A stretch of DNA of 63,311 nt, filler included, from Gemmatimonadota bacterium (GCA_003697105.1; 7 parts of 7 records of this genome joined end to end with filler, not necessarily neighbours in it), one strand, 5' to 3'. Shown: positions 25,937 to 43,964, numbered from the whole stretch's first letter. Notes: generated from the sequence alone by a model not told the origin. A program made the numbers and translations.

Positions 25937-26168
25937 AAAATACTACCAACCTGAAGTCTCCAAACAACTCCATAACGCACTGATAAAAAAGATATTATAA
26001 AATTATAACGAAATATAGGGTTTACAACTTGACGGGAAAACATTCTGAAATCCAGTAACCGTCTATGTTTTCGGCGATCGTATCTTGAGATATTTCAAGA
26101 CAAATTAGAAGTCAAAAACCCTAGATTCCGTCTCATTTTCCAGACTTCTGCAGAGACTTCAGCATTTT

Positions 26169-26798
26169 TCATTGTAAGCCTCTTGCAGGGATTCCGAGAT
26201 AAGTGCCGGCACATAACAGATCCGTGGTGACAACCGAACCGGCTCCGACAACACACCCTGAACAGATTTTTTTGTATTGAATTACGGTAGCTCCGGTACC
26301 GATTAAACAATCATCCTCAATGGTCACGCCTCCACTGAGCGTCACGCCTGGGGCAACATGGACAAAATTTCCCACCTGGCAGTCATGATCAATGGATGAA
26401 CGGGTATTCACGATCGAAAAACACCCAATACGAGACCCCGAATTTACGACTACGCCATCCATGACCACCGTGCCGGCGCCGATATGAACATCTTCGTTAA
26501 TAATGGCTGTTGGCGATATAACCGCTGGAAACACATAACCGATTTTGATCGCTTTATCACGCAATCGACGCCTTAATTCTGCTGTTTTTAGCTGGCCGAT
26601 TCCCAAAGTAGCCAGGTTCGTACCTCGAGCAAACTGTCCCGGTAAAACATCATCGGTCCCTAAATAGGGTACACCTAAAATAACACCGTGATTTACGGTA
26701 TCCACGTAACCGACAACCTGATACTCTCTGATTTTATTCAATAGGGAAATCACGACTTTCGCATGACCTCCCCCGCCAATAACGAGTATTCTAGGCAT
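26169..26798 (-). CDS. NeuD/PglD-family hexapeptide-repeat acetyltransferase
   Basis: IGGGGHAKVV, IDHDC, left-handed beta-helix repeats and GIPAR. Confidence 0.9.
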   Translation of the reverse strand: MPRILVIGGGGHAKVVISLLNKIREYQVVGYVDTVNHGVILGVPYLGTDDVLPGQFARGTNLATLGIGQLKTAELRRRLRDKAIKIGYVFPAVISPTAIINEDVHIGAGTVVMDGVVVNSGSRIGCFSIVNTRSSIDHDCQVGNFVHVAPGVTLSGGVTIEDDCLIGTGATVIQYKKICSGCVVGAGSVVTTDLLCAGTYLGIPARGLQ

Positions 26799-27945
26799 GT
26801 TTCAACACCGATACCACATACGCCACATCATTGGGAGTTAAATCCACCGAACAGGGAAGATTCAAGGTTTTTTCCCATAAGGCCCAAGCGGTCTCAATTT
26901 GATACGACTGGCAATGGCGGTACGGCTTTTGGCGATGATTCAAATACCAGACTGGCCGGGCTTGAACCCCTTTGGCGGCTAAAAATGCCATCAATTGTTC
27001 GCGATCCTTGCCATAAATATCTTTATCAATTTGAAGACAATAAAACCAATAATTGGAACAAGCATAATTCGGTGTTTCGGCAATATGTAACCCGCGAATG
27101 TGCTCGATTTCCTGTTGATACCGTTTGTAATTTCGGGTTTTAATCTCAATATATTCTGCTAATTTTTCCAATTGTGCCACGCCCATCGCTGCCTGAATAT
27201 TGGTGAGTCTGAAATTATAACCCACCTCATGGTGAATATACCGCACGGGATCATCTTTTGCCTGAGTGGTTAAGTAGCGTGCTTTTTGGGCAACGGCTTC
27301 GTTGGAAGTGACGATCATTCCCCCTCCACCGGTGGTAATGATCTTATTACCATTAAAGGAATAGCACCCGACATCTCCAATTGTTCCCGTATACTGTCCG
27401 TTCAAGTTCCCTTGTGTATAATATGTTCCTAAACTCTCGGTGGCATCCTCGACGATTTTAATATTCCGCTCTTGGCAGATCGGAACCAGCGATTCTAAAT
27501 CCACTGCATTTCCGTAGATATGAACCGGAATAATGGCTGAAATCCGTTTCCCACTGGTTTTATTATAACTGAAACCCTCTCGAAAAACCGTTTCGTTCTG
27601 GATAAATTGAATGGTTTTCTCAACATCAATATTGTAAAACGCATCGGCATCCATAAAAATTGGATTTGCATTTAAATAGCGAATGGTATTGACCGGCGCA
27701 ATAAACGTGAGGGTCGGGACCATCACTTCGTCGTCTGCTTGAACACCCACCACCTGCAGCGCAACTTGAAGTGCCGCTGAGCCGTTGACACATGCTACGG
27801 CATAATCGGCACCGGTGACCCGGCAAATATCCTGTTCAAAGCGCTCGACGTACGCCCCCGCAGAGGAAACCCAACCGGTATCCAGACAGTCTTTGATATA
27901 CACCCATTCATTACCCCGAATGGAAGGAACAGATAAAGGGATCAT
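26791..27945 (-). CDS. legC: DegT/LegC-family PLP aminotransferase
   Basis: MIPLSVP...TGWVSSAGAYV, EDATESLG, SFNGNKIITTGGGG and GYNFRLTNIQAAMG. Confidence 0.8.
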   Translation of the reverse strand: MIPLSVPSIRGNEWVYIKDCLDTGWVSSAGAYVERFEQDICRVTGADYAVACVNGSAALQVALQVVGVQADDEVMVPTLTFIAPVNTIRYLNANPIFMDADAFYNIDVEKTIQFIQNETVFREGFSYNKTSGKRISAIIPVHIYGNAVDLESLVPICQERNIKIVEDATESLGTYYTQGNLNGQYTGTIGDVGCYSFNGNKIITTGGGGMIVTSNEAVAQKARYLTTQAKDDPVRYIHHEVGYNFRLTNIQAAMGVAQLEKLAEYIEIKTRNYKRYQQEIEHIRGLHIAETPNYACSNYWFYCLQIDKDIYGKDREQLMAFLAAKGVQARPVWYLNHRQKPYRHCQSYQIETAWALWEKTLNLPCSVDLTPNDVAYVVSVLKHA

Positions 27946-28027
27946 GCTATTTATCTTACGACCTCAATGTATAAAGGTCTTTCAGGACAAATATTATCAA
28001 ATTTAGACCCGCTAATTTCATATTATA

Positions 28028-28124
28028 ACCCAAGTTGCTACCAAAGAAAGTCTTGAAATAGGCCACTCCTTTCATGTAGACTTATCATATCTATATCTTA
28101 TTGATAACTCTAACGTCTAACGAA
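28028..28124 (+). mobile_element. IS982-family left end, copy 1
   Basis: Begins ACCCAAGTTGCTACC; 97 bp identical to 43868-43964 and 53067-53163; preceded by TATTATA. Confidence 0.85.
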
Positions 28125-28224
28125 NNNNNNNNNNNNNNNNNNNNNNNNNNNNNNNNNNNNNNNNNNNNTTAATTAATTAANNNNNNNNNNNNNNNNNNNN
28201 NNNNNNNNNNNNNNNNNNNNNNNN
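28125..28224. other. Artificial contig linker
   Basis: N-run with TTAATTAATTAA. Confidence 0.98.
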
Positions 28225-28770
28225 TGTTGGAAATACGTTTCTGAATTATGAGGAGGGTATCTTTGATGGAGAGGGCAGTGCTTTACTCATCGCCTATAAC
28301 CATTTTATCCGAACAGCTACCGGCATATTTTACACTGAGGGTGGTCGTCCAACCTATATTTATCGCAATCACTTTGAATCTGAAGATACTGGAATTGAGG
28401 CTCATTTTAGCACTGTCGATGTGGTCGACAATTATTTGGTCAACTATCAAATAGAGGTGCAAAGTTTACAGAGAAAAGCTCACTATTACCTGTTCACTAT
28501 TCACTATCCAACTATCCCAATCCGTTTAATGCCGCAACAACGATCCAATATGAACTTCCCACCCCTTCTCATGTGTCTATTAATGTCTATGATGTAATGG
28601 GGCGACGAGTTACTACATTGGTCAATGAAAATAAAGAAGCAGGATTTCATACGGTGACATGGAACGGTCGAAACGATCAGCAGAAATTCGTCCCTTCCGG
28701 TATTTATATCTATCGTTTGGAGAATGAATCCGGTCTAAACCTGAGTAAACCAATGGTTTTGTTGAAATAA
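28225..28770 (+). pseudogene. C-terminal part of a secreted beta-helix protein with FlgD/T9SS-A-type CTD, frameshifted near 28435
   Basis: Frame from 28226 gives parallel beta-helix repeats (VGNTF..GIF, AYNHF..GIF, YRNHF..GIE, VDNY). The -1 frame continues GQLSNRGAK...NYPNPFNAATTIQYELP...PSGIYIYRL to TAA 28770. Confidence 0.65.
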
Positions 28771-28777
28771 ACTGGGA

Positions 28778-30286
28778 TCATTGATAGTTTAGGACATGAA
28801 TCTTCATTTTGCCAATGAGGGGCAGTAATTTCGGGTACTGGTCAAATTCACCTTCCAGCAATTTAAGATGGGTAGCATCGGCGATCATATCGCCGAACGT
28901 GGGGTCCATCGCCACCCATCGTGTGCCTGTCCAAACCTCGGGCCACGCATGGTAATAAAAGGCATTGTCCAAATAGACAACGCCGAGCGCAATTCGGGTC
29001 GGAATACCCACCGCCCGGGCAAGAGCGGTGAACAGCGTGGTGTGTTCGTTACAATCACCTTGCATTGTGCGGAGAACCTCAATTGCCGAAGGGATGCTCA
29101 TGGTGGGCACTTTTTCCACGTGTTTAAACACCCATTTTCCCAACCGATTTGCGGCAGACCAAGCCTGCGGATGGTCTTCTCCCAGAATCTGCCGGGCTAA
29201 ATGGCGAATGGTATCAGCATCGGCTTGAATGAAATCGGTCGGCATTAGCCACGAGTCCAACCCGTGGGTATCTAACGGAAGGCAAAGGCTATCATTTAGG
29301 TCAGGGCGGGTTTGGCTTATTTTCACCGTCACCGAACTATCTGTTCGGGCAAGGATCGTCTGCCGCTCTGTTTCCAGTAAAAATTGAGACCAATCAACCC
29401 CTTTTGAAACCAACCGGAGTGTCACTGAGCGAGTAAAGCGGGAATCGGGAATGAGGCGGCTCACCGGAATAGACACATCCACCAACAAATCACTGGTAGT
29501 CGCTACAATTTCCGGTGGCGGGGCTATTTTCATCGCCGCTTCTTTGCTTTCCCGCAACATGACCAAGCCTAGCAAGGTTTCTTCCCGTTTGACACTCTGT
29601 CCGGTAGGGTCAATCCAGGTGTAAGAATCCATGCCATTCAGGGTCATGCGGATTTTAGTGGCATAAATGGTCTCTCCCAGGACGGTTAAAAGTGTCCGTT
29701 CAACCAATTCGACTTCCACGGGAGCGGTTTTCTGCGACAGCGGATCAAACATATCAAAGGTGTAGGTTTTACCGGGTTTTAGATCGAGATTGGGCACCAT
29801 GTGTTCAAAAGCCAGTGGCATCGTAAATTTCCCTTTAATGGGAATATGCCGTTGGCTGTGTTGTCCGGCGGCATTGATGTCCAGCCGCAACATCTTTTCG
29901 CTAACATGACCCTCAAACTCCATCGTTTGACCGGCGGAAACCACTGTCATGGAAAAGTCAAGGGGGCGAAAATCCGGGCGAGTGTTGATGTAGCCTTCAA
30001 TGCGGGTATCAAGGAGGTGTTGCATTACCGGTAACCGCATGAACCAATTTTGCTCAAAGCGATAATTTCCATCCGGCAAAATATAAGTCGATGAACCGAC
30101 AAAACCGATTTTGACTCCATCTTTGTAAACCCCCATCCACTCTTCGCGGGCTTCTAGTTGTGCGATCACGTTTTGGATATCCAGACGTTCATGTTTACCG
30201 CTATAAAATCGCTGGAGCAGCATCCCGATCAATACCAGCCAGATCAGGATGAACAGAACGTTGAGGAGTTTAAACGCCAGTTTCAT
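28778..30286 (-). CDS. Membrane-anchored transglutaminase-like protein
   Basis: N-terminal TM helix; Cys-His-Asp triad in GDCNEHT, YYHAWPEV and MDPT. Confidence 0.85.
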   Translation of the reverse strand: MKLAFKLLNVLFILIWLVLIGMLLQRFYSGKHERLDIQNVIAQLEAREEWMGVYKDGVKIGFVGSSTYILPDGNYRFEQNWFMRLPVMQHLLDTRIEGYINTRPDFRPLDFSMTVVSAGQTMEFEGHVSEKMLRLDINAAGQHSQRHIPIKGKFTMPLAFEHMVPNLDLKPGKTYTFDMFDPLSQKTAPVEVELVERTLLTVLGETIYATKIRMTLNGMDSYTWIDPTGQSVKREETLLGLVMLRESKEAAMKIAPPPEIVATTSDLLVDVSIPVSRLIPDSRFTRSVTLRLVSKGVDWSQFLLETERQTILARTDSSVTVKISQTRPDLNDSLCLPLDTHGLDSWLMPTDFIQADADTIRHLARQILGEDHPQAWSAANRLGKWVFKHVEKVPTMSIPSAIEVLRTMQGDCNEHTTLFTALARAVGIPTRIALGVVYLDNAFYYHAWPEVWTGTRWVAMDPTFGDMIADATHLKLLEGEFDQYPKLLPLIGKMKIHVLNYQ

Positions 30287-30290
30287 GAGC

Positions 30291-30713
30291 TTATGGTTCG
30301 ACTAGGGTACAACTAAATTCAACGCTGGCAACACGCTTTCCGGCTACCCGAACAGTGCCTTTCATAAAGTAAGCACCGCCGATGGTTTCGACCAGCTCGA
30401 CCGTCATTTCCATCGTATCCCCCGGGCGAAGAAACCGTTTAAACTTGGCATTTTGGAGCCGGGTCAGGGCGGGGATTCCTGCTTTTTGATCCGGCAAGGC
30501 TTTTTTGAGGAAAATCGCACCGGATTGAGCAACTGCCTCGCAAATTAATACGCCGGGCATGATCGGATTACCGGGCATGTGACCCTTAAAGAAAGGTTCA
30601 TCCTGCCGCAAGGTGCGCCGGGTGCGGATCGAATTCCCGGTCAGTTCAACAATTTCATCCACAAATAGAAACGGTTCGCGCTGCGGGATGGCGTCGTAAA
30701 TATCGGTGTTCAC
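30291..30713 (-). CDS. fabZ: FabZ-family 3-hydroxyacyl-ACP dehydratase
   Basis: IPQREPFLFVD and FFKGHMPGNPIMPGVLICEAVAQ (catalytic His/Glu). Confidence 0.88.
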   Translation of the reverse strand: MNTDIYDAIPQREPFLFVDEIVELTGNSIRTRRTLRQDEPFFKGHMPGNPIMPGVLICEAVAQSGAIFLKKALPDQKAGIPALTRLQNAKFKRFLRPGDTMEMTVELVETIGGAYFMKGTVRVAGKRVASVEFSCTLVEP

Positions 30714-30744
30714 AGGTTATCCTCACTTAATAGAGTGAATAATA

Positions 30745-31485
30745 TCAAAGCCCACCGGTAATCTCTAAGACCGTACCAGTGATGTAACTCGCCTCTTGAG
30801 AGGCTAAAAAGAGTACACCCGCGGCAATTTCCGCCGGTGTACCGAATCGTTTCAGCGGGACTTGGTTTTTATATAATTTTTTTTGTTCCGTGGAAAGATC
30901 GGCAATCAATTCAGTCTCAACAAAGCCTGGAGAGACACAATTGACCGTGATGTTGCGCTTGGCAACTTCCTTAGCAAGGGACTTGGTTAAGGCAACCTGC
31001 CCCGCTTTGGAAGCGGCATAATTCGCTTGTCCCGCAAAACCATGCTCGCCAGAAGGCGACGTAATATTAATAATCCGCCCGTAGCGATGTTTCATCATCG
31101 CCTGCACCGCAAATTTACACATGTGATAGGTACCGGTCAAATTGGTGTCGATGACCTGTTGCCATTGTTCTGGGGGCATCATGGCGAGCACCGCATCTTG
31201 ACGAATACCGGCATTGTTAATGCAGATATGAATTTGGTTATACTCGGTTTCGATTTTTTCAAAGAAGCTTTTGACGCTTTTGTAGTGGGTAATATCAAAA
31301 TTATGTAAATTTAGATTATCAGCTTGACTCCCCTGCGCTGCTTTGAACGCTGTTGCCGCCGCGTGATTGCGGGCGTAGGTTGCCAATACCGTCGCACCGG
31401 CACTTAAAAACGCGGCCGTGATGGCGCCCCCAATCCCGCGCGTACCGCCGGTGACAATAACAACTTGATCCGTAAAATTGAACAT
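30745..31485 (-). CDS. fabG: 3-oxoacyl-ACP reductase
   Basis: TGGTRGIG, NNAGI, YAASK and VSPGFVET. Confidence 0.9.
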   Translation of the reverse strand: MFNFTDQVVIVTGGTRGIGGAITAAFLSAGATVLATYARNHAAATAFKAAQGSQADNLNLHNFDITHYKSVKSFFEKIETEYNQIHICINNAGIRQDAVLAMMPPEQWQQVIDTNLTGTYHMCKFAVQAMMKHRYGRIINITSPSGEHGFAGQANYAASKAGQVALTKSLAKEVAKRNITVNCVSPGFVETELIADLSTEQKKLYKNQVPLKRFGTPAEIAAGVLFLASQEASYITGTVLEITGGL

Positions 31486-31532
31486 AACTGATCCTTTAGA
31501 TTAAAATGGAAGGGATATACCGATAGACACCC

Positions 31533-32936
31533 CTACGCGCGAAGATATTTATCGACGTTATTACTGGTGATCACCCCGTAGTTGATCGCCCCCAACCAGC
31601 CAGACATGATGATCGCCACCGAACCGGCATGATATAAGCCGGGCACTTGTTCCGGCAAACCCTGACTGATTTTAAGCCCTTCAAACTTAGTACCAAAAGA
31701 GGTTCCCGCGGGGTGAAGGGTATAGTGCTTAAAGGTACAGGGTGTGGAGGCTTCGAGGTGGTCCACTTTGGCACGAATATCCGGCAAATACTTCTCCAGA
31801 CAATTTAGCGTATCTTCAATCAGATGGTCTTTTGCCTGTTGATATTCCGCTTTGCTAAGCCGGTTCCAATCGTCAAAACGGGCGTTGGTGGACGAGACAA
31901 TCGAAAACTTTCCCGACCGAAGGGTATCATAATAGACCGAAAATGTCCGGCTGGTGACCTTCATATCCAGCATAGCATCCGTGTTATATTCTGGAGCCGT
32001 GGAAGTGAAAATCAAGTCGCCAATGTATGGAATAGATTCGCCTTGCCGGATACCAATATACACCTGACAGGAGCTGGTATTAACCCGTACCTTGCGGGCT
32101 TCTTCAATAAAATCAGGCGAAAAATATTCCTCTCCGGTGAGCTTAAAAATGGTGGATAACACGTTGGCGTTGGAGAGTACCGCTTTGCATTTAATAACCC
32201 GTCCATTTGCCGCAATACCGGCCACTTTACCCCCCTCTACAATCACTCGTTCCACCCGAACATTTTTCCGCAGGTCAACCCCGTTGGATTTGAGCACCTT
32301 GACCATCTCTCCGATAAGCTGATCCGTGCCATAATCAAAGGTAAATACCCCTTTATTCATAAAATTGGAAAAGACAATTCCGTACGATATAGCGGGATCG
32401 TCCAGTGTTGAGCCGTTGGCATAGGTGATCGGCTCCATCAGCAATCGCCAGACATCCGTACGTCCGGGGAAAAATTGTTGGAATAACTCGCGCGTGGTCA
32501 TTTGCTGGTCATCATAAAAATTCATGCTCCGGGCGGTATCAAAAAAATTTTCGACCGTTTGGGGGTCTATCCCAAATTTATCAACCATAATCCGGGAGAA
32601 GTCTTTCCGATCAAACGTCGTTTCCAGTTTGAATTGCGGGTTATCAAAAATCACACCTTTCAGTTGATGAATATGACTGGCAATCTCCTTCGTCCAATAT
32701 TTCCGGCACGATTTGACCATCCCATACGGGAATCCGTGCAAGGAAATATCAAAAATATGCCCACCCTTACGGTGAAACCACGTCGCTAAACCACCAAATT
32801 GGTAATGATGCTCCAATAAGAGGACACTATGCCCGGCTTTCGCTAAAATATTAGCAGAAGTCAAGCCTCCAAGCCCACTACCGATGACCACCACGTCATA
32901 ATAATCCTTTGCACCTTTTAAAAAATCTTTTGCCAT
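31533..32936 (-). CDS. CrtI/phytoene-dehydrogenase-superfamily FAD oxidoreductase (B)
   Basis: [10 protein letters not shown]...[21 protein letters not shown] and GLYHAGS...GWLGAINYG. Confidence 0.8.
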
Positions 32937-32950
32937 TCGTGAATTCCTTT

Positions 32951-32986
32951 GAGTTTTACGAGTTTTACGAGTTTTATGAGTTTAGA
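32951..32986. repeat. 9-bp tandem repeat (GAGTTTTAC) x~4
   Basis: GAGTTTTAC GAGTTTTAC GAGTTTTAT GAGTTTAGA, just upstream of the RBS of the second flavoprotein gene. Confidence 0.8.
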
Positions 32987-33005
32987 AGTTTGATGCGTTT
33001 GGGAG

Positions 33006-34397
33006 TTATTGTAGTACATGCAAATTTGCCATAGAGATACCACTAAGCATTGCGCCGACAATACCCAAAAAGCCTTGATCCGTCCCAATGATAAAGAGAT
33101 TCTTAAAAGGTGTTCGACCGTCTTTGACCTTATCGGGGGCACCATAAACCGCTCCGTTGATATGACCCGTATACCGCTGGATGGTTAGCGGAGTGAATGC
33201 ATCTGTATAAATAACATGGTCACGAAAAGGAGGGATCAGTTGCTCTACCGCGTCGATCATCTGGCGGATGACCCGCTCTTTGGCGGCATAATAAGCTTCT
33301 GAATCTGATTGAAGTGATTGCCACACCTCAAAATTGGAGATACAGGTTAATCGTAGCAAATTATCCTTTAAGGGACGGTCATACTGGTAATTATTGGGCG
33401 AACAAATCACCCCACTTTTAACATCTACTAAACCCTCGGCTTTGCGATACCGGAATTGTTCCCCCAAATTATAAAAGGTAATCGTTGCGTCATGTCCCCA
33501 ATCCGCCGGAGGTTGGTCTAGCACAAAAATCGTCTCGATAAATGTCATTACTCCGGCATTGGATTGAGGGTTCGTCACCGGCAAGGGGTCGATCAACGCC
33601 AATGTTTCATAATAACCGGCGGAGGAAAGAATTTTATCCGCGGTTAATATCTCACCATCTTCAAGTTCAACAGCTTGGATCCGGTCATCGGTGCATTTTA
33701 AAGATCGAACTCCGGCACGCATCCGCATTTCACCACCCTGTTTCCGATACTGGCGGACAAGCGCACTCGTTATTTGCCGGACACCCTGCCACGGCCGTGC
33801 AAATCCTTCATTAAAAATACTTTTGAACATGATTACAAACTGCCCGAATTCCATATCATCTTCTATTGCGCTGCCATAGTACATTAGCGGGCAAAAAAGC
33901 ATATCGATCAATAGCGGATTGGATAAATAGCGGGATACGATGTTCCGTGCCGATACCGGTTTGCGTTGTAGGTTTAGTTCGTCATAACTTAAAATTATGT
34001 CAACTAAATTATGGAAACCTTCCATCTGATCCGGAAAGTGTAACCGTACCTGAGCCACCAATTCATCAAAATTATTGGTAAAGCGCAACCGGCAATTTGG
34101 AAAGAGAATCTCTGAATAATTCTGCTCCCGAAGATCAAACGCTTCATAAGGAAGTTTAAGTTGGCGCAACAGTTTATTCAACGGGGCACGGCGTGCGGTT
34201 TTGGGAACGAAATTCGTCATTGCGTGCAACCCCACATCAAACGAATAGCCATCTTTTGTGTAAAACGAATTAAGCCCGCCGTACATGTAATGCTTTTCCA
34301 GAATCAGGACGGTTTTATCGTAGTAGGCACAACGGACACCCGCCGCCAAACCAGACATCCCTGCCCCAATGATAATGACATCATAATGGTTTGCCAT
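33006..34397 (-). CDS. CrtI/phytoene-dehydrogenase-superfamily FAD oxidoreductase (A)
   Basis: IIIGAGMSGL...LEKH..YGG, FDVGLH, FTPLTIQRYT..NGAVYG and GIVGAMLSG. Confidence 0.8.
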   Translation of the reverse strand: MANHYDVIIIGAGMSGLAAGVRCAYYDKTVLILEKHYMYGGLNSFYTKDGYSFDVGLHAMTNFVPKTARRAPLNKLLRQLKLPYEAFDLREQNYSEILFPNCRLRFTNNFDELVAQVRLHFPDQMEGFHNLVDIILSYDELNLQRKPVSARNIVSRYLSNPLLIDMLFCPLMYYGSAIEDDMEFGQFVIMFKSIFNEGFARPWQGVRQITSALVRQYRKQGGEMRMRAGVRSLKCTDDRIQAVELEDGEILTADKILSSAGYYETLALIDPLPVTNPQSNAGVMTFIETIFVLDQPPADWGHDATITFYNLGEQFRYRKAEGLVDVKSGVICSPNNYQYDRPLKDNLLRLTCISNFEVWQSLQSDSEAYYAAKERVIRQMIDAVEQLIPPFRDHVIYTDAFTPLTIQRYTGHINGAVYGAPDKVKDGRTPFKNLFIIGTDQGFLGIVGAMLSGISMANLHVLQ

Positions 34398-35607
34398 CTC
34401 GGTCTCCCTTCGCTTCTGCCGATAAACGAGAATTCAAACCAAGTGCGGCGGCGCGTTTTTCCCATTGCTTGCGCGCAAGTGCTTGCATATCTTCAACTTC
34501 ATCCATTTCATCGACAATTTCCATACCAAGTAACGTTTCAACCACATCTTCTAAGGTCACCAACCCCTCCGTTCCCCCATATTCATTGATCACCAAAGCA
34601 ATATGCTGGCGTTGATCCAGCAAAAATTCCAACAAATTGGAGAGCCGCATCTCTGCTGGAACGGGTGGTAAATGCCGCTTCAAGTGAGCCAGCGGAATCT
34701 GATCCCGGTTTTGGACTTTTGCCAACAGCATATCCCGTTTTAGGACAAAACCGGTCATATCATCGATATGTTTGCCATAGACCAAAACTCGGGAAAATGG
34801 ATTTTCCGGATCGGCTGCCCATGCTTGCGCAACGGTTATATCCTCCTGAAAGGCATGAATTACCGTCCGCGGGGTCATAATATCTTTTGCCCTTATAAGA
34901 CCAAAGCGAAATAAATTAGAAATAATACGCGACTCATGTTCATGGATTTTACCCGTCTCCTTACCCATACCTGCCATAGCGAGAAATTCATCCCGGCTGA
35001 ACACCTGAACGGGGTCATTTCGGGAAATCCAGCGGGTGAGTCGCTCTGAAATCCAGATTAACGGGTACAATACCCAAATTAATCCTTGCACAAAATACGC
35101 TGTTGGACGCGCCAGCGCCCGCCAATAAACGGCACCTAACGTTTTGGGGATAATTTCAGATAAAAATAGAATGGCAAGCGTCATCAACGCTGAAAATAGG
35201 CCGAACCAAGCGTTACCAAACACGATGGTTGCTTTCGCTCCGGCACCGATAGCACCGACCGTATGAGCAATGGTGTTCAATGTTAGAATCGCCGCAAGAG
35301 AGCGGTCAACATTCGCCAGTTTTAACTGCTTCAGTTTTGCCGCCAAATGGGGTTGGTGAGTATCCAAACCGGCGATATAAGATGGGGTAATACTTAACAA
35401 CACCGCCTCTGAAACCGAACAGAGAAACGAAAAGATCAAGGCTAACAGAATGTAAAGAACCAACATCACAACATCCCAGCGGGTGTAATCTGCGGCATTA
35501 CCATCGCCCAGATTACCGGTACCCACAGCAAAAGTACTGCTGGCGATGATCACCCCCACCACGACAAACCATGCTTGGATCGAGTATTGCCTCACACTTA
35601 GCCTCAC
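34381..35607 (-). CDS. CNNM/DUF21 + CBS membrane protein (hemolysin/CorB-like)
   Basis: SFLCSVSEAVLLS, SEIIPKTLG, DIMTPR and EYGGTEGLVTLEDVVE; no CorC C-terminal domain. Confidence 0.88.
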   Translation of the reverse strand: MRLSVRQYSIQAWFVVVGVIIASSTFAVGTGNLGDGNAADYTRWDVVMLVLYILLALIFSFLCSVSEAVLLSITPSYIAGLDTHQPHLAAKLKQLKLANVDRSLAAILTLNTIAHTVGAIGAGAKATIVFGNAWFGLFSALMTLAILFLSEIIPKTLGAVYWRALARPTAYFVQGLIWVLYPLIWISERLTRWISRNDPVQVFSRDEFLAMAGMGKETGKIHEHESRIISNLFRFGLIRAKDIMTPRTVIHAFQEDITVAQAWAADPENPFSRVLVYGKHIDDMTGFVLKRDMLLAKVQNRDQIPLAHLKRHLPPVPAEMRLSNLLEFLLDQRQHIALVINEYGGTEGLVTLEDVVETLLGMEIVDEMDEVEDMQALARKQWEKRAAALGLNSRLSAEAKGDRDGKPL

Positions 35608-35641
35608 CGGTATAACGTGCTAAAAATCACAGCATAAATAA

Positions 35642-35683
35642 TGATTAAACCTTGCAAAGGTCAATTTCTGCAAGGTTTAATCA
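35642..35683. terminator. 15-bp stem-loop downstream of ACP
   Basis: TGATTAAACCTTGCA...TGCAAGGTTTAATCA. Confidence 0.65.
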
Positions 35684-35709
35684 AAAGTAGATCATATTGA
35701 GATGCCGGT

Positions 35710-35979
35710 TTACCGGTCACCTTCATAAGGAACATCTTTTAATTTATCATAAAGATATTCTGCACTGCTGTTTAGTGTTGCTAATTCCATGTAATCGTCC
35801 TCTGGAACTTCAATTTTATAGCGTTTCCGAAGTTCCATCACAATATCCAGAAAGTCCATAGAATCGAGGTCCATTTGCTCCCGCAGGCGCACATCCGGAT
35901 CGATATTACTTAAATCTTCGTCGGGGACAATATCCTCTACAATGTCTAGCACCAATTTTTTGATTTCCTCTTTACTCAT
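35710..35979 (-). CDS. Acyl carrier protein (cluster-dedicated)
   Basis: Acidic 89 aa with LDSMDFLDIVMEL phosphopantetheine serine motif. Confidence 0.92.
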   Translation of the reverse strand: MSKEEIKKLVLDIVEDIVPDEDLSNIDPDVRLREQMDLDSMDFLDIVMELRKRYKIEVPEDDYMELATLNSSAEYLYDKLKDVPYEGDR

Positions 35980-36038
35980 TACACCCTCTCTAAACTGAAA
36001 ATGATAAAGTAAATCGCCAGTATTTAGCGGTCATAAAA

Positions 36039-37295
36039 TTAGGTTTCGTCATACTTTTTGATAATTACCACCGAATTAATTCCCATCATTCCAAATGAGC
36101 TCGCCAAAATATAATTAACGTGCCCGATCTCTTTCGGTTCGTTCAGCACTAAATTAACACCTTCACAATTTGGGTCGAGGTCATCCACATTAATGGTCGG
36201 ATGAACAATTCCATCATCAAAGGAGGGCAGATTTCCCGCCAATTCCAGCGCACCGGCAGCACCCATCGCATGCCCAATATAGCTTTTTGTATTGTTAACA
36301 TAAGGGCGGCGATCCGGTGAAAAGATAGATCGAATCGCTTCACACTCCTGAATATCACCGGCGGTGGTGCCTGTAGCATGCGTATTAACAATATCGATCT
36401 GTTCGGGTTGAAGATGTGCTTTTTGGAGCGCCAATTTCATGCACTGGGCTTGCTGGATGGGATTTGGCAATACGGGATCGGTGGCATCCGAAGTGATTCC
36501 ATACCCGACGAGTTCACCGTAAATACGGGCACCTCGTGCTTTCGCATCGCGAAGGCGTTCTAACGTATAAACACAGCCGCCTTCCGAGATTACAATCCCA
36601 TTTCGATTCATGTCGAACGGGCGGCTTGCTTTTGCCGGGTCTGTATGTTTCGCTAAAGCACCTTGACTTTGAAAAGCGGCAAAAATACCAAAGGTATGGA
36701 TACTTTCGGAAATTCCTCCGGCGAGCGCGAGGTCAACTTCCCCCAACCGGAGCATTTGCACCCCTTGGATCAAGCCCATATTTCCGGCGGCACATGCCGC
36801 GCCGATGGTGTAGTGCGGTCCCGTGATGCCCATATTCAAAGTAACTTCGCCTGCCGGATTATTGGCAACTGTGCGGGGGTTGTGATGGTGTGTCCAGAAC
36901 CGGACATCATAATCATATTGAGACAAATTATAAACTTCATTCTCGGTTTCGACATTGCCGTGTTCGGTGATGCCCAAATAGACACCGATTCGAGCGGTAT
37001 CCAGCGTTCCGATATCCAATCCGGCATCCTTCATTGCCTCATGGGCACAATAAACCGCTACCGAACCCGCCCGTGTCCCTCGCCGGATTTCTTTTCGATT
37101 TTGATATTTGCGCGGGTCAAAATCACATACGCCAGCGATAGTTTTGCCAATGTACCGGATTTCGTATTCTTGGACACCGGAACGGCGTTCCAGCAAGCTC
37201 CGCCGGAATGTCGTTAAATCATTATTGGAACCGGGGGCGGTCAAGCCAACTCCGGTAATCACAATCCGTTGTATATCTGAATTCTTCTGTTCCAT
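36039..37295 (-). CDS. Beta-ketoacyl-ACP synthase (FabF/FabB-type KS)
   Basis: RIVITGVG; Cys-His-His triad in AACAAG, NTHATGT and KSYIGHAMGAAG. Confidence 0.9.
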   Translation of the reverse strand: MEQKNSDIQRIVITGVGLTAPGSNNDLTTFRRSLLERRSGVQEYEIRYIGKTIAGVCDFDPRKYQNRKEIRRGTRAGSVAVYCAHEAMKDAGLDIGTLDTARIGVYLGITEHGNVETENEVYNLSQYDYDVRFWTHHHNPRTVANNPAGEVTLNMGITGPHYTIGAACAAGNMGLIQGVQMLRLGEVDLALAGGISESIHTFGIFAAFQSQGALAKHTDPAKASRPFDMNRNGIVISEGGCVYTLERLRDAKARGARIYGELVGYGITSDATDPVLPNPIQQAQCMKLALQKAHLQPEQIDIVNTHATGTTAGDIQECEAIRSIFSPDRRPYVNNTKSYIGHAMGAAGALELAGNLPSFDDGIVHPTINVDDLDPNCEGVNLVLNEPKEIGHVNYILASSFGMMGINSVVIIKKYDET

Positions 37296-37388
37296 AAGCT
37301 ATTGAAAGTAGTCTAAAAAGGTTATTAGGTCTTTAAGTTCACTGGATTCAACATTTCAGTTACCCATTAATTGCAAAAATGCGGCGTT

Positions 37389-37417
37389 AATGTAATACGC
37401 CTACCGGTCTCTGGCAA
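37389..37417 (-). promoter_or_regulatory. Possible internal sigma70 promoter for KS-ACP genes
   Basis: Minus strand TTGCCA-17 nt-TACATT in the oleD-KS intergenic region. Confidence 0.5.
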
Positions 37418-37424
37418 CAGTTTT

Positions 37425-38420
37425 TCAACGGTGCTGCCGGTAGTAGGCGAATAAGCGGTCAAGCGCCGTTTGCGGGTCAATTTTTGGCGAAAAATGAAAG
37501 TCACGCCGGGCGGCGGCGGTATTAAAATAGTGGGATTTTGCAAGTTGGGAGGCTAAAAAGCGGGTCATTTTAGGCTCTGATGAAATGCCAAACATGCGGT
37601 ATATCCCTTCCATTATCTGCCCGATCCGGTAAGCTGTTGGATAGGAAATTGTCCGCTTAATGGGTGGTAAATCTAAATTTTTTAACACATTTGCGATCCA
37701 GTCCCACAGGTTAACAGGGGTATCATCATTGATAAAATAACACTTCCCCGCCACCGCAGAACCCGGGTATAAGGCGTCCGCCGCTTGCAGATGTCCTTCT
37801 GCCACATTTTCCACGTAAGCAATACTGACCTGATTGGTGCCATCACCAACTTGCACCAATTGATTACGTTTTGCACGCTGAATCAAGCGCGGGATCAAAT
37901 GATTATCGCGTGGACCCCAAATTAAATGTGGGCGCAGAGATACCGTCGCCAGCCCATGCTGCCCGTTCGCGGCGATCACAGCTTGTTCCGCAAGCGCTTT
38001 TGTATGGGGATAATGAGCCAGATAACAAGCTGGGTAGGGCAAGGATTCATCACCGTTTATAATGTCATCATCACCAAAAACAACCGAAGGTGAACTGGTA
38101 TATATCAGTTTGGAGACCCCGTTCTGCCAGCATCCCTCAATAACGTTTTGAGTACCCGTGACGTTGATCGAATAGAACGTATCCCATTTACCCCACACTC
38201 CCGGTAGTGCGGCGGCATGAAAGACACAATCCATACCTTGGCACGCCGCCATAACGGCGTCACGCTGACGAATATCCGCCTGAAACGTTTCCACCCCGAG
38301 GCGTTCAAGTTCAGGATACGCCCCTCGACTCAAAGAGCGAACCTGCCATCCCCGGCTTAAACAGCCTTCCACAAGGTAGCGACCCAAAAATCCGCCGCCG
38401 CCGGTAACTAAAACATTCAT
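37425..38420 (-). CDS. oleD: OleD-like 2-alkyl-3-oxoalkanoate reductase (3beta-HSD/extended SDR)
   Basis: TGGGGFLG, YTSSPSVVF, HYPHTKALAEQ, LRPHLIWGPRDNHLIP; next to an OleC-like gene. Confidence 0.78.
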   Translation of the reverse strand: MNVLVTGGGGFLGRYLVEGCLSRGWQVRSLSRGAYPELERLGVETFQADIRQRDAVMAACQGMDCVFHAAALPGVWGKWDTFYSINVTGTQNVIEGCWQNGVSKLIYTSSPSVVFGDDDIINGDESLPYPACYLAHYPHTKALAEQAVIAANGQHGLATVSLRPHLIWGPRDNHLIPRLIQRAKRNQLVQVGDGTNQVSIAYVENVAEGHLQAADALYPGSAVAGKCYFINDDTPVNLWDWIANVLKNLDLPPIKRTISYPTAYRIGQIMEGIYRMFGISSEPKMTRFLASQLAKSHYFNTAAARRDFHFSPKIDPQTALDRLFAYYRQHR

Positions 38421-38453
38421 GTGCGGGTCACTCCTCTGTCTCGCATCCTGAAC

Positions 38454-38807
38454 TCATTCCTCACCACCGCCATACGCGGGCTCTATGATGGCACTCATCG
38501 AGCCTTTACAGCGGGGAATCCACGGATCGGGACCATAAGCGTGGATTTGGTCACGTTTCAGTTCGGCTCGCTCTTTGGTAGTGGTATCCACAATTACCCG
38601 TCCGGTATCGTCCACTTCGCACGCCATCAAATACGCCAGTTCGGCACTATGTCCGAAAATATCCATCAGCATCACGATCACATACTCATACGTATGATCG
38701 TCATCGTCCAGCAACACCACATGGTACGGTGGGATTTGGCTTAGATCGGGACGGCGGGGCTCAATCTTCGGTTGGGTAATTTCGATGGGTTCGATAGTAG
38801 TTGGCAT
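38454..38807 (-). CDS. clpS: ATP-dependent Clp protease adaptor ClpS family
   Basis: PPYHVVLLDDDDHTYEYVIVML...GRVIV...ERAELKRDQI; start set at MPTTIEP. Confidence 0.8.
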   Translation of the reverse strand: MPTTIEPIEITQPKIEPRRPDLSQIPPYHVVLLDDDDHTYEYVIVMLMDIFGHSAELAYLMACEVDDTGRVIVDTTTKERAELKRDQIHAYGPDPWIPRCKGSMSAIIEPAYGGGEE

Positions 38808-38818
38808 GATCGTATGAT

Positions 38819-40483
38819 TTACGCTGCCACGTGTTGGGCAGCCCAAAGGGCAAGTTTTTCACGAAAAATTTTGGCGTTATGCCGGATATCTGTTGGGAAA
38901 ACACCGGGATAAATTAAAACGGTTTTGATCGATTTTGTCAACGGATTCGCCGCCGCCATCTTCTGTATGTCGTCAACCAGTTGGGTATCGCTGATATTGC
39001 GGGTGCTTTCCTTTTGCTTTTCAATCAGGATTACCGGTTGTTGGTTTGGGCGTTCGCCAACCCCCACTAAAGCGGAACGAAATACGGCAGGATGGTCATT
39101 AAAAATGCCTTCGCACGGAACGGTAAACAGGGTTCCACTGGCGGTAATTACGCGATGGCTCTTCCGGCCGCAATACCAAATTCGACCCAGCTCGTCAAAA
39201 TAGCCCACATCGCCGATGCGATGCCGGATCGTACCCTGAGCGTCATAAATTTTTGCCAACCGGGTATGGTCTGGGCGTTGATAATAAGCGGGCGTCACTA
39301 TATCGCCTTTGATGACGATTTCCCCGATAGTTCCGGGCGGCACACAAAGCGACCCATTCCACGTTTCAATGGGTTCATCACTAATGCGGATAATCTTCAC
39401 CTCAACATCTGGGAAGGGCATCCCGACGCATGTTCCAGCACCACGTTTGGTTTTTTCCGCCGTTTCGGTCACAACCTGACTCCCCGCAATTGAGGCGACC
39501 GGTAAGGCTTCTGTGGCGCCATACGCCGTATGTGTATCCGCCGCCGGGGTTAAAATATGCCGGTAAAAGCGCTCCAAAATATCCGGACGAACCGGCGCGC
39601 CGAACATCAAAATCCGTTTGAGAGAAGGCAATTTTATCTGATGGTCCACACTATATTTCCCGACACGATCCCAGATGGCAGGTGAGCCTGCCGCGGAGGT
39701 AATCCCTAAATTTTCAATCGTTTCTACGATTTTATGCGGGTCCACCTCTGCCGGACGGGTCGGGTCCATATCGGGAATAACACACGTCATACCCATTGCC
39801 ACATCAAATAGGGCAAATAGCGGGAATCCGGCAAGGTCGAGTTCACCTTCCTTAATCTGGTAAAAATCTCGGATATAGCGCACTTGGGCGTCAAAAATAC
39901 CGTGGGTGAACATCACGCCCTTCGGTGGACCGGTTGAACCGGTAGTAAAAATGATCGCGGCGAGGTCATCCGCCTGTGTCTCCGCTAACGGGAACTCTGG
40001 ACACGATGTCGGGCGGATCGAATCCAATGTGATCCCCGGTAGAATCCCCTTTTTACCGACAATCACCGCTTGTTTAACGGTCTGAAATGGTTTCCGGTAG
40101 ATCAATTTTGCCACATGGGCACGTGGTATGCCGATTAAGGCGTCCGGCTGTACCTCCGCCACACAATTGAGCAGATTATCTTTACCCATACCCGGGTCAA
40201 TCAAGACCGGCACCGTCCCCATTTTGAATAACGCAAATGTGAGGGCAATAAACTCTAAACTTGGCGTCACAGCCAGCAGGACTTTTGTCCCCCGTGAAAT
40301 TCCAATGGAATGCAATCCGTGACAGTAGCGGTCACACTCTTGATTCAATTGCCGGTAGGTCAGGTGAGTATATGCAACCCGTCCGGTATGATCGCGCCCT
40401 TCCGGGAAGACAACGGCTCGCTGGTAAGGTAATTTTTGCGCCATTTCCGGCAGATATTTCGCAATGTTACATAATGTCGGCAT
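38819..40483 (-). CDS. oleC: OleC-like beta-lactone synthetase (ANL adenylate-forming enzyme)
   Basis: CNIA, VPVLIDPGMG, IFTTGSTGPPKGV, FPLFALF, IPDMDPTRPA, YGATEALPV, WYCGRKSHRV and DIRHNAKIFREKL. Confidence 0.85.
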   Translation of the reverse strand: MPTLCNIAKYLPEMAQKLPYQRAVVFPEGRDHTGRVAYTHLTYRQLNQECDRYCHGLHSIGISRGTKVLLAVTPSLEFIALTFALFKMGTVPVLIDPGMGKDNLLNCVAEVQPDALIGIPRAHVAKLIYRKPFQTVKQAVIVGKKGILPGITLDSIRPTSCPEFPLAETQADDLAAIIFTTGSTGPPKGVMFTHGIFDAQVRYIRDFYQIKEGELDLAGFPLFALFDVAMGMTCVIPDMDPTRPAEVDPHKIVETIENLGITSAAGSPAIWDRVGKYSVDHQIKLPSLKRILMFGAPVRPDILERFYRHILTPAADTHTAYGATEALPVASIAGSQVVTETAEKTKRGAGTCVGMPFPDVEVKIIRISDEPIETWNGSLCVPPGTIGEIVIKGDIVTPAYYQRPDHTRLAKIYDAQGTIRHRIGDVGYFDELGRIWYCGRKSHRVITASGTLFTVPCEGIFNDHPAVFRSALVGVGERPNQQPVILIEKQKESTRNISDTQLVDDIQKMAAANPLTKSIKTVLIYPGVFPTDIRHNAKIFREKLALWAAQHVAA

Positions 40484-40706
40484 GCACGGCTCAGATTAAA
40501 AGTGGGAGTATAAATCAATTGTTCCGCGATAATAACATAGATGGAGATCAACGTCAATACCTTTCCTAACCCGTTGATATAGAATACATTAAAAGAAAGA
40601 TGAGAAAACGTTAAATTTTTAAGTTGACGGATGATCTTTTTTCGGGTACAATGTTCACCGGAGGTAAAATTTTGCCACCTCATCATTTATTTTCGGGAAA
40701 AGAGCC

Positions 40707-41285
40707 ATGGCAGACCTGACCGATCTACCGCATTTAATCCAGTTACTTGATGATGAATCCCCGCAGATTCGGAAAGCGGTCCTGGAAGCGCTCCACGATT
40801 TGGGTAGCCAATTAGATATCGAGCTTGAAAAAAAACCCGAATTGCTCAATCCGGTTCAGCGGGAACATTTGCAGAATGTGCTAGCACATCTAAAAGACCC
40901 TCCCCTCCCCAACATCCGGTTTGCTCCGGAAGTATCTAAAGAGATCACAAAATTTCAAATTGGAGAGATGGTGAAACATAAACGATACGGTTATCGAGGG
41001 GTTATTGTAGATTATGACCGCATCTGTCAGGCGGATGAAATCTGGTATTATGGAAATCGGTACCAGCCCCGCCGGAACCAGCCTTGGTACCATATTTTGG
41101 TACACCAATCAAACCAAACCACGTATGCCGCGCAGAGCAGTTTAACATGGGATACGTCCCTCCAACAGATTCAACATCCGCTACTCCGGTATTTTTTCCA
41201 CCATTTTGAAAATGGGCGTTACGAACGCAACAACGAACCGTGGCCCTATCGCTGGAATATTTCCAAAAATGATCAAAATACCTGA
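40707..41285 (+). CDS. HspQ/YccV-like domain protein with N-terminal HEAT-like helical segment
   Basis: KFQIGEMVKHKRYGYRGVIVDYD...QPWYHILV..TTYAAQSSL..IQHP; N-terminal LIQLLDDESPQIRKAV. Confidence 0.8.
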   Translation: MADLTDLPHLIQLLDDESPQIRKAVLEALHDLGSQLDIELEKKPELLNPVQREHLQNVLAHLKDPPLPNIRFAPEVSKEITKFQIGEMVKHKRYGYRGVIVDYDRICQADEIWYYGNRYQPRRNQPWYHILVHQSNQTTYAAQSSLTWDTSLQQIQHPLLRYFFHHFENGRYERNNEPWPYRWNISKNDQNT

Positions 41286-41303
41286 GTCATTCAGCCGCAT
41301 TCT

Positions 41304-42557
41304 ATGAACCTTACCTCCGGTTTGAAACAGCATTATCATACGCTTTTACGGATAGCTACTGGCATGATGGCAGTGATTGCTGGACTGTGGTTAAGCTACG
41401 AAATCTGGCGTTTTTTATGGGAACCCGATTATTTGGGACCCCTCCCTATCCATCCCGGGGCAATCGACCTCAAAATGCGATTTAACGAGGTTAATGCGTG
41501 GTTTCAAGGCACCCCGGTATATAAGACTATTGGGTCCGCGGTGTATCCCCCAGCCAGTTATGTGATCTTTTGGTTGCTATTGGGGTGGCTAAGCCTACCT
41601 TACGCCAAACTACTCTGGTTGGCCGCCTCGCTCTTCGTGGTATGGATATTCAGCCGGCAACTCATCCGGTATAGTTTAGCGTCTTCCCCGTTAGAAAAAC
41701 GGTTTATCGGCTGGCTACCCTTTGCCGCCTATGCCACCGGTGCGACTATCGGAAATGGACAAGTAATTGTCTTCGTGTTGCCCCTACTCCTTGCCGGAAT
41801 TTGGAATATCTGCCACTCCTCAATTCCGGCAATACGGCGCAAGCTTGGAAACGTTGCGATTCTACTGGCATTAGTTCAACCGACCATTGCCGCGCCGTTT
41901 TTTTGGCTGATCATGTTCGTACCTAGAACCATCAAGCCGGCGGCAATCATTGTCATGAGTTACGTGCTCTTAACCGGTTTCGCCCTTATGTTTCAAACCA
42001 TGGGAACCGCTAAAAAATTAGATTCAGCGTCATCGATGAAATCGATTGAGAATTGGACGTCACATGCCTCTGGCGGGATTAAAGCCGGTTCGGTTTCCGG
42101 TGGTTATAACAATATTCATACCCTTTTGACCTCCACCGGACTGGCAAAATGGAACATACCCGCTTCATTAATCATCCTACTCGCATTGGGTATCTGGATA
42201 TTTCTCTACCGTCACGCAGAAATCGGGTTGCTGATTGGCATGACTGCCATCATTGCTCGTCTTTGGATATACCATCGCTGGTATAATGATTTACTAATCG
42301 TATTGCCATTGGTTACGCTTTTTCGGATCACTCACCAAGCGCATTATTCTAGCAAAGCAAAATACGTAGCCACAGTGCTATTCATCATCGGTTGGCTGGT
42401 AACATTAGCTCCGGGTGGGCTATATCTTCTGCCGTCACCGCTCGATACCGTTTGGATGATGGCGCAGGTGGTTTTATGGCTGGGTATGTTAGTGTTCTTA
42501 ATGCAACAAATCTATACTCAATACACCCCTCAATTTCGGATATTAAATTTAAGGTAA
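41304..42557 (+). CDS. GT87/DUF2029-like polytopic membrane glycosyltransferase (GT-C)
   Basis: Many TM helices; IDL..R, VYPPASY, GNGQ and YHRWYND motifs. Confidence 0.65.
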   Translation: MNLTSGLKQHYHTLLRIATGMMAVIAGLWLSYEIWRFLWEPDYLGPLPIHPGAIDLKMRFNEVNAWFQGTPVYKTIGSAVYPPASYVIFWLLLGWLSLPYAKLLWLAASLFVVWIFSRQLIRYSLASSPLEKRFIGWLPFAAYATGATIGNGQVIVFVLPLLLAGIWNICHSSIPAIRRKLGNVAILLALVQPTIAAPFFWLIMFVPRTIKPAAIIVMSYVLLTGFALMFQTMGTAKKLDSASSMKSIENWTSHASGGIKAGSVSGGYNNIHTLLTSTGLAKWNIPASLIILLALGIWIFLYRHAEIGLLIGMTAIIARLWIYHRWYNDLLIVLPLVTLFRITHQAHYSSKAKYVATVLFIIGWLVTLAPGGLYLLPSPLDTVWMMAQVVLWLGMLVFLMQQIYTQYTPQFRILNLR

Positions 42558-42562
42558 TTCTT

Positions 42563-43741: not shown

Positions 43742-43747
43742 TAATGT

Positions 43748-43794
43748 GTCTGGGGCGTCAAAGCTCGTTTTGGCGACCCAGACGTCGACTTTTC
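43748..43794 (+). terminator. Probable intrinsic terminator
   Basis: GTCTGGG-GCGTCAAA...TTTGGCGA-CCCAGAC imperfect hairpin followed by a T tract. Confidence 0.5.
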
Positions 43795-43867
43795 AATATT
43801 CCACCCGTTAATTTGTTTTTAACCATCGAATAAATCCTTGATCATCCGCTGGCGGAGTATTATTCTA

Positions 43868-43964
43868 ACCCAAGTTGCTACCAAAGAAAGTCTTGAAATA
43901 GGCCACTCCTTTCATGTAGACTTATCATATCTATATCTTATTGATAACTCTAACGTCTAACGAA
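43868..43964 (+). mobile_element. IS982-family left end, copy 2
   Basis: Identical 97-bp ACCCAAGTTGCTACC... segment; preceded by TATTCTA. Confidence 0.85.

Follow-up and report, generated by a model that had tools for sequence, protein, structure and literature searches.

The DNA analysed here (the window) is a stretch of 63,311 nucleotides from Gemmatimonadota bacterium (GCA_003697105.1), in which contigs of a metagenome-assembled genome (MAG) are chained with N spacers; where a spacer lies between two genes, they are not neighbours. The subject of the analysis is a run of genes on one of these contigs, C128 (15,740 bp, window 28225-43964), in which oleC and oleD of the OleABCD olefin pathway stand with a ketosynthase (KS), an acyl carrier protein (ACP), a ketoreductase and a dehydratase of the type II fatty acid synthase (FAS II) kind, and two flavoenzymes, here called A and B. 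A total of eleven genes, all on the minus strand and tightly packed with gaps of 4-129 nt or overlaps, occupy positions 28778-40483 in the order OleC-ClpS-OleD-KS-ACP-CNNM-flavoenzyme A-flavoenzyme B-FabG-FabZ-transglutaminase-like. The genes, their common orientation, order and families had been given in an earlier reading made from the sequence alone (the sequence-only reading), and assignment of the window proteins to Pfam and NCBIfam families confirmed them. The features, in window coordinates, are as follows.

40529..40557, minus strand: promoter-like site upstream of oleC, TTGACG-17-TATTAT, 10/12 (pattern scan only)
38819..40483, minus strand: OleC-like AMP-dependent ligase of the olefin beta-lactone synthetase type, 554 aa (PRK09274, 688.5 bits)
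38454..38846, minus strand: ClpS-like protein of 130 aa, its gene sharing 28 nt with oleC (Pfam ClpS, 60.4 bits)
37425..38420, minus strand: OleD-like extended short-chain dehydrogenase/reductase of the 2-alkyl-3-oxoalkanoate reductase type, 331 aa (NCBIfam OleD models)
36039..37295, minus strand: FabF-like KS, 418 aa (307.9 bits with the fabF model, cut-off 493.75)
35710..35979, minus strand: ACP, 89 aa, with a DSM serine motif (Pfam PP-binding, 44.1 bits)
35642..35683, minus strand: terminator-like hairpin between ACP and CNNM, 17-bp stem followed by a T-rich tail (pattern scan only)
34381..35607, minus strand: CNNM/CBS membrane protein of 408 aa whose gene overlaps that of flavoenzyme A by 17 nt (Pfam: CNNM at 95.6 bits; CBS)
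33006..34397, minus strand: CrtI/CrtISO-fold flavoenzyme A, 463 aa (Amino_oxidase and NAD_binding_8 domains)
31533..32936, minus strand: CrtI/CrtISO-fold flavoenzyme B (467 aa), distantly paralogous to A
30745..31485, minus strand: FabG-type ketoreductase, 246 aa (3oxo_ACP_reduc, 285.8 bits against a cut-off of 297.75)
30291..30713, minus strand: FabZ-type dehydratase, 140 aa (PRK00006, 117.5 bits, cut-off 113)
28778..30286, minus strand: transglutaminase-core protein of 502 aa, its gene 4 nt downstream of fabZ (Pfam Transglut_core, 78.8 bits)

The catalytic residues of the KS, ACP, ketoreductase and dehydratase are intact, as had been claimed, the expected motifs being seen in the translations. 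The KS carries AACAAG, HATGT and KSYIGH, a normal Cys-His-His set, FabG carries YAASK, and FabZ carries GHMPG...EAVAQ. OleD has GGGGFLG and YPHTK, and OleC has TTGSTGPPKG. The motif definitions used for these proteins and for OleB are those that we take to be the accepted ones.

The fab genes of the cluster are not the housekeeping set of the genome. A complete and separate FAS II is encoded elsewhere, and every gene of it that was found scores over its curated cut-off: acpP and fabF (644 bits) are adjacent on contig C140, a second fabF (566 bits) is on C105, fabG is on C65 (363 bits) and on C45, fabD on C89, fabH beside plsX on C81, an lpxC-fabZ fusion on C150 and a FabL-type reductase on C118. 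The module KS is only 32-34% identical to the two true fabF products of the genome and 62-70% identical to the module KS of other phyla, and the module ACP falls under all acpP cut-offs. The suggestion that the module is dedicated thus stands. So does the suggestion that its chains are supplied independently of Pfa, the megasynthase of polyunsaturated fatty acids (PUFA): PfaA (TIGR02813) is absent from the genome, the best match being a discrete FabD at 123.5 bits against a cut-off of 1010.

The sequence-only reading had also reported that OleA, OleB and an enoyl reductase are lacking. This is true of contig C128 and untrue of the genome, since oleA and oleB lie together on contig C87, outside the window, and a fragment of a FabI-like reductase lies on contig C147; the absences describe the contig and not the organism. 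The fragment is C-terminal, at the very end of C147, where 111 residues cover positions 156-266 at 73% identity. In 35 of the 74 related loci described below the gene after FabZ encodes a FabI-like reductase of some 266 aa, and in 13 a phosphopantetheinyl transferase (PPTase) comes next. The beginning of C128 (C128:1-553) was considered as a source of the N-terminal half that the FabI-like gene lacks and was rejected, as what it encodes is the tail of a convergent gene for a protein sorted by the type IX secretion system (T9SS).

The C87 thiolase scores 457.9 bits with PRK09258, over the cut-off of 285, and along its whole length it resembles the OleA structures of X. campestris (3ROW and others; E 6e-61, against 1e-14 for FabH). 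Its NAC, LEP, HQV and GN(V/I)G motifs align with the Cys, Glu, His and Asn positions of the OleA structures, presumably the Cys, His and Asn of the active site and the Glu base. A hydrolase of 293 aa begins 19 nt after oleA. Among known families it comes nearest to the haloalkane dehalogenases, without reaching their cut-offs, but it has the HDWGG nucleophile motif and is 48-53% identical to the OleB adjoining OleA in 16 loci; by its sequence it is probably OleB, a putative decarboxylase. The cluster OleC scores over the PRK09274 cut-off of 478 and is 41-50% identical to OleC in the OleA-OleB-OleC-OleD runs of related loci, and its orthology is supported by its position in such runs in 6 loci. 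For OleD the next-best family, HpnA, is far below the OleD models at 131 bits, and OleD adjoins OleC in related loci.

In comparison with the canonical oleABCD organisms (Xanthomonas campestris, Micrococcus), the catalytic residues of OleA are aligned, and OleB, OleC and OleD are the families that the other three proteins match best. The differences are that oleAB and oleCD are here split between separate contigs, that OleC and OleD are under their curated cut-offs, and that the canonical pathways draw on ordinary fatty acyl chains, with no supply module of their own. Directly upstream of oleA is a 228-aa protein without a family match (C87:14599-15285), preceded by a methyl-accepting chemotaxis protein (C87:12461-14599). 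On the other side, downstream of oleB, there is a response regulator. The related loci have conserved none of the three.

The complete Ole set bears on the alternative that OleC and OleD act without OleB, leaving a beta-lactone lipid as the product. Clusters of the lipstatin and nocardiolactone type have homologues of OleA, OleC and OleD without OleB, and contig C128 would fit this description, having an OleC of the beta-lactone synthetase type and no oleB. Here, unlike in those clusters, a gene of the OleB type with its HDWGG motif follows oleA, OleB accompanies OleA in half of the related loci that show OleA, and there are no nonribosomal peptide synthetase or other tailoring genes on C128. 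The beta-lactone product that had been offered as an alternative is therefore very improbable.

The linkage of ole genes to a KS, an ACP and two flavoenzymes, which had been proposed from this one contig, was checked across genomes and is conserved across phyla. The best 80 of the GTDB matches to flavoenzyme A gave 74 loci, which were searched by tblastn with the window proteins and the C87 OleA and OleB at no less than 40% identity and 40% coverage. The KS was found in 55 of the 74 loci, the ACP in 59, flavoenzyme B in 51, FabZ in 46 and FabG in 20, the non-PVC (Planctomycetes-Verrucomicrobia-Chlamydiae) type. OleA was found in 32, OleB in 16 (all among the 32 with OleA), OleC in 11 and OleD in 15. 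In a subset of 40 loci with at least 4 kb on either side of flavoenzyme A, KS and ACP occur together in 34, flavoenzyme B in 30, FabZ in 31 and one or more ole genes in 27; all of these 27 belong to the 34 with KS and ACP. A complete OleA-B-C-D run is found beside KS and ACP in six loci. The core, KS-ACP-A-B-(FabG)-FabZ-(FabI-like), has ole genes next to it in members of the Chloroflexota, Planctomycetota, Opitutales, Nitrospinota and Bacteriovoracaceae, with layouts that include the following.

Dehalococcoidia: OleA-KS-ACP-A-B-FabG-FabZ-FabI-like-PPTase
Several Planctomycetota: OleA-OleB-OleC-OleD-KS-ACP-A-B-(FabZ)
Phycisphaerae and others, similar to the window: OleC-OleD-KS-ACP-A-B-FabZ
Opitutales: KS-ACP-A-B-FabZ-OleA-OleB
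A Bacteriovoracaceae MAG: KS-ACP-A-OleA-B-C-D

The genes for ClpS, CNNM and the transglutaminase-like protein had been counted as parts of the cluster. They and the upstream neighbours are found in none of the 74 loci (tblastn, at least 40% identity), and since these three genes lie so close to their neighbours here yet are absent there, they are here treated as lineage-specific inserts. The genome has a second ClpS, on C88, and a CNNM paralogue, 40% identical, on C112. A ClpS-like open reading frame (ORF), 27% identical, is found directly after flavoenzyme A in an Opitutales MAG (L033:11652-11882), a second and independent case of such a gene within a module; this may be chance.

The association with OleA extends beyond the linked loci. 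A sample of 201 Planctomycetota species genomes was searched for flavoenzyme A (E<=1e-60), OleA (E<=1e-50) and PfaA-like proteins (E<=1e-100), identifying A in 37, OleA in 71 and PfaA-like proteins in 42, of which 31 are over the cut-off. OleA is present in all 37 of the A genomes, sometimes with the genes megabases apart, and in 34 of the remaining 164. Where OleA is present, module and Pfa alternate: in the 71 OleA genomes, A alone is found in 35, a PfaA-like protein alone in 33, both in 2 and neither in 1, in counts that are not corrected for shared ancestry. One of the two genomes with both has merely a 370-bit match to KS-acyltransferase regions. The OleA proteins also differ, those of A genomes being 47-59% identical to the C87 OleA (E<=2e-97 save one fragment) and those of Pfa genomes 38-48% identical (E>=2.9e-95). 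In many Pfa genomes OleA and pfaA are on one contig, no more than some 10-15 kb apart.

The same alternation recurs independently in the class of the genome studied here. Only two other genomes of this class are in the collection (99% and 93% complete), and both have an OleA that is 44-46% identical and a PfaA over the cut-off, and both lack flavoenzyme A. In the Opitutales, A is present in 83 of 101 sampled genomes, in 79 of these at full length and at least 41% identity, and none of the 101 has a PfaA over the cut-off. Nor do any of five named module carriers. Bythopirellula, which we take to be in the same family as Lacipirellula, has the module and no PfaA over the cut-off. The simplest explanation of the alternation is that module and Pfa lead to an equivalent product.

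With a probability of about 65%, the module replaces Pfa as the supplier of unsaturated, and probably polyunsaturated, chains for olefin synthesis by OleABCD, and the product is an olefin. The association with Ole could instead be without meaning, the module making membrane fatty acids, such as anaerobic unsaturated ones, independently of Ole. The unrelated genes for ClpS, CNNM and the transglutaminase-like protein within the run would agree with this, as would the strong hairpin that splits the ACP gene from those downstream and the 7 of the 34 loci with KS and ACP that have no ole gene within 10 kb. It is made improbable by the ole genes at the other 27, by the presence of OleA in every A genome of the Planctomycetota even when the genes are megabases apart, and by the replacement of Pfa specifically in genomes that have OleA.

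In the Dehalococcoidia the module occurs in a different form. A sample across the Chloroflexota was uninformative (1 positive in 151), and the order of a complete Dehalococcoidia chromosome, G003, was used instead. Among 50 genomes of this order A is present in 17 and OleA in 19, with 16 of the 17 A genomes having OleA, often in two copies. The OleC model has no match at E<=1e-40 in the 50 genomes, against 3e-172 for the OleC of the window, and in the complete chromosome and a second genome (G006) the nearest proteins to OleC are generic ligases at only 26-28% identity. OleA, which is kept in this order without OleC, is therefore the module's constant partner, and these Dehalococcoidia must end with a different product, not with the standard Ole olefin. 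In some Dehalococcoidia, tandem duplicated OleA-KS(-ACP) units lie upstream of the flavoenzymes (L018, L023, L041).

The flavoenzymes themselves are distant paralogues, 21% identical (E 1e-23), each with an N-terminal GxGxxG FAD motif. Flavoenzyme A scores 60.2 bits with crtI_fam (TIGR02734; cut-off 238) and 98.6 bits with carot_isom (cut-off 586.9), and flavoenzyme B scores 76.1 and 94.4 bits, respectively. The solved structures nearest to both by sequence include CrtI (4DGK) and the carotenoid desaturase 4REP, the latter being also the best solved fold for the model of B (TM 0.73; predicted local distance difference test, pLDDT, 86.6). The two proteins therefore share the CrtI fold and are not classed as carotenoid enzymes, their scores being far under the curated cut-offs, and no carotenoid genes are among the annotated genes of C128. 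All 8000 of the 8000 candidates scored are relatives of A at E<=0.001; among the matches listed they are 56-64% identical and mostly 461 aa. Relatives of A are encoded by 706 of the 716 pattern matches in GTDB species genomes, that is, by at least 706 species loci.

The CrtI fold, with a carotenoid desaturase as the best solved fold for B, also suits a reading in which the module feeds OleA with chains that are not PUFA-like. The flavoenzymes would then make conjugated or otherwise modified chains, or would act after condensation, on what OleA releases or on the olefin, as CrtI does on phytoene, to give some other hydrocarbon or a ketone lipid. That nearly all A genomes of the Dehalococcoidia order have OleA and none of the order has an OleC-type ligase is in its favour. 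However, the flavoenzyme genes lie directly behind the ACP gene in most loci, the flavoenzymes are kept where OleB, OleC and OleD are missing, so that an olefin is not needed for them, and the alternation with Pfa points most simply to an equivalent product. This other reading is unlikely, though it deserves to be kept in mind.

Under the preferred reading, that of a supplier of unsaturated chains to OleABCD, the run on C128 would combine the OleC-OleD half of a split pathway with a dedicated acyl-ACP module in one operon-like unit. The module would elongate acyl chains on its own ACP, and the two flavoenzymes would introduce double bonds or shift them, with neither O2-dependent desaturases nor a Pfa megasynthase taking part. 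OleA, from C87, would condense two chains made by the module and would have to receive them from the ACP. OleD would reduce the OleA product, OleC would close the beta-lactone, and OleB, again from C87, would decarboxylate it to a long-chain polyolefin of the C31:8 or C31:9 kind. The flavoenzymes, in this scheme, presumably supply the double-bond chemistry that FabA-like domains carry out in Pfa. The carriers include Dehalococcoidia and Thermoguttaceae MAGs, with contig names that point to goat rectum, and a route built in this way is plausibly O2-independent.

Several observations weigh against this reading. The inspected carriers of the module are known from their genes and not from their lipids. 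The module has a single KS, a single ACP and no chain-length factor, and no conserved thioesterase or ligase links acyl-ACP to acyl-CoA, which is the substrate used by OleA in vitro. CrtI-type desaturases are known for conjugated double bonds and not for methylene-interrupted ones such as those of C31:9, and the structural model of flavoenzyme A is too poor for use (pLDDT 49.6). The Ole set is complete in this genome but split between two contigs. Its OleC scores 573.7 and 563.4 bits with NCBIfam NF045786 and NF045785, under cut-offs of 900 and 850, and its OleD scores 372.1 and 344.3 bits with NF042422 and NF042423, both under cut-offs of 580. The FabI-like gene is cut and on another contig, its N-terminal half being absent from the assembly and the end of C147 having no graph neighbour. 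In addition to the loci that have KS and ACP and no ole gene, flavoenzyme A stands without a KS or ACP nearby in 5 of the 40 loci of the subset. Finally, the either/or pattern in the Planctomycetota may owe something to the shared ancestry of the genomes counted, and it has three exceptions, two with both suppliers and one with neither.

A route of this type has a precedent in the literature. Desulfotalea psychrophila has no PKS-type PUFA route and yet contains C31:8 and C31:9 hydrocarbons, and its FASII clusters include three pfam01593 'phytoene dehydrogenase-like' genes, DP1860, DP2405 and DP2406; an anaerobic desaturase extension of FASII was proposed as the route to these compounds (Rattray et al. 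2009, PMC2649909). The idea of a FASII and flavoprotein route, as put forward in the sequence-only reading, is therefore not a new one. In being Pfa-less and in combining FASII genes with pfam01593 flavoproteins, the D. psychrophila clusters resemble the module, the likeness being one of description. They differ in having radical SAM (S-adenosylmethionine) genes in synteny, and the paper draws no connection with Ole, which was then unknown (PMC2649909). A literature search found no paper that describes the module beside ole genes, no experimental test of the FASII and flavoenzyme route, and no paper on Planctomyces maris and olefin.

The hydrocarbon n-C31:9 has been reported in Lacipirellula, and such alkenes are often present in planctomycetes (PMC6995999). 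In Shewanella, C31:9 is the product of Pfa-made 16:4 and OleABCD (PMC4882568). The linkage of pfa and ole has been described (PMC4882568, PMC3098273), and these systems, in Shewanella and in the pfa-ole tandem of Geobacter bemidjiensis, share with the locus described here a dedicated acyl supplier adjoining the ole genes. The difference is that the supplier is here made of discrete type II proteins and two CrtI-fold flavoenzymes, not of a megasynthase with FabA-like dehydratase domains.

The candidate ladderane clusters of anammox bacteria had been offered as a further analogy. An ACP, a FabF-like KS, FabZ and a CrtI-like flavoprotein are indeed common to the cluster and to kuste3603-3608 and kuste3335-3352, and in vivo the CrtI-like proteins of anammox bacteria do not act as phytoene desaturases (PMC4790861). 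The anammox clusters have radical SAM genes and a non-canonical FabF (PMC2649909, PMC4790861), in contrast to the normal Cys-His-His KS found here and to the annotated genes of C128, among which there is no radical SAM or SAM-methylase gene. Seven probable anammox genomes were recognised, on our own inference, by HZS_alpha ORFs of HzsA size (809-826 aa), HZS_alpha itself being unspecific, with matches in 32 of the 201 genomes. None of the seven has a flavoenzyme A orthologue (E<=1e-60) or an OleA (E<=1e-50). The analogy is therefore distant, and the chance that the run encodes a ladderane-type pathway is negligible. Three of the seven (G094, G158, G176) have a PfaA-like protein at 800-830 bits, in ORFs of 2777-2915 aa, and no OleA.

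The assembly as a whole is 4.18 Mb in 199 contigs and 96.85% complete. The window includes contigs C125, C126, C127, C128, C129 and C148, and possibly others, with N spacers at the following positions.

11808-11907: N spacer
20270-20369: N spacer
28125-28224: N spacer
43965-44064: N spacer
53164-53263: N spacer
58234-58333: N spacer

The same 99-nt sequence ends C127, C128 and C129 (window 28026-28124, 43866-43964 and 53065-53163), and other contig ends are also shared. This looks like k-mer overlap at branch points of the assembly graph and not like biology. The GC content of the cluster is unremarkable (0.480, against 0.485 for the genome); it is possible that the module was acquired by horizontal transfer. 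The cluster is present in two DNA runs labelled hot springs metagenome, and no RNA run is listed with it.

Other features were found in the window and in the genome. Nonulosonic (sialic-acid-like) sugar genes occupy window 18674-27945, on other contigs, and include two NeuB-type synthases, a NeuC-type 2-epimerase and a DegT-type aminotransferase. A T9SS sorting domain with an NYPNPFN-type tail is encoded at the start of C128 (window 28225-28770, plus strand), and a Por_Secre_tail is present on an endonuclease-like protein at C147:7113-8219. Together with the lpxC-fabZ fusion, the T9SS sorting domains are a hint of an FCB-like (Fibrobacteres-Chlorobi-Bacteroidetes) affiliation. The best PurA matches outside the genome itself reach no more than 52-56% identity and are scattered across many phyla. 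On the next contig, a 646-aa protein (window 44013-45953, minus strand) contains bacterial thrombospondin type 3 (TSP3) repeats; it also matches, though weakly (E 2e-5), a calcium-binding domain, that of proteins of the binary-toxin B / protective antigen (PA) type. Yet another contig encodes the small and the large subunit of a methylmalonyl-CoA mutase as a pair (window 58364-62727, plus strand).

The origin of the C31 polyunsaturated hydrocarbons of bacteria without Pfa has been open since at least 2009, and the module is a concrete and widespread candidate for it. A wider view can be put forward tentatively, at somewhat less than an even chance. In this, the module would be a second polyunsaturated route, independent of O2 and of megasynthases, that has been swapped with Pfa several times, including within the class of the genome studied here. 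It would be the source of C31:8 and C31:9 in Pfa-less Desulfotalea, many planctomycetes and the Opitutales, and the product of the OleA-only Dehalococcoidia would differ, being perhaps a long-chain ketone or a 2-alkyl-3-oxo acid lipid. The OleA-only form itself points to a further lipid. If PUFA-like chains are made, this would be new flavoenzyme chemistry, in which double bonds are introduced without O2 on acyl-ACPs. If the reading is true, the module would provide lipid-biomarker work with a genetic marker of C31:9 producers, and the engineering of unsaturated hydrocarbons with small discrete enzymes in place of megasynthases.

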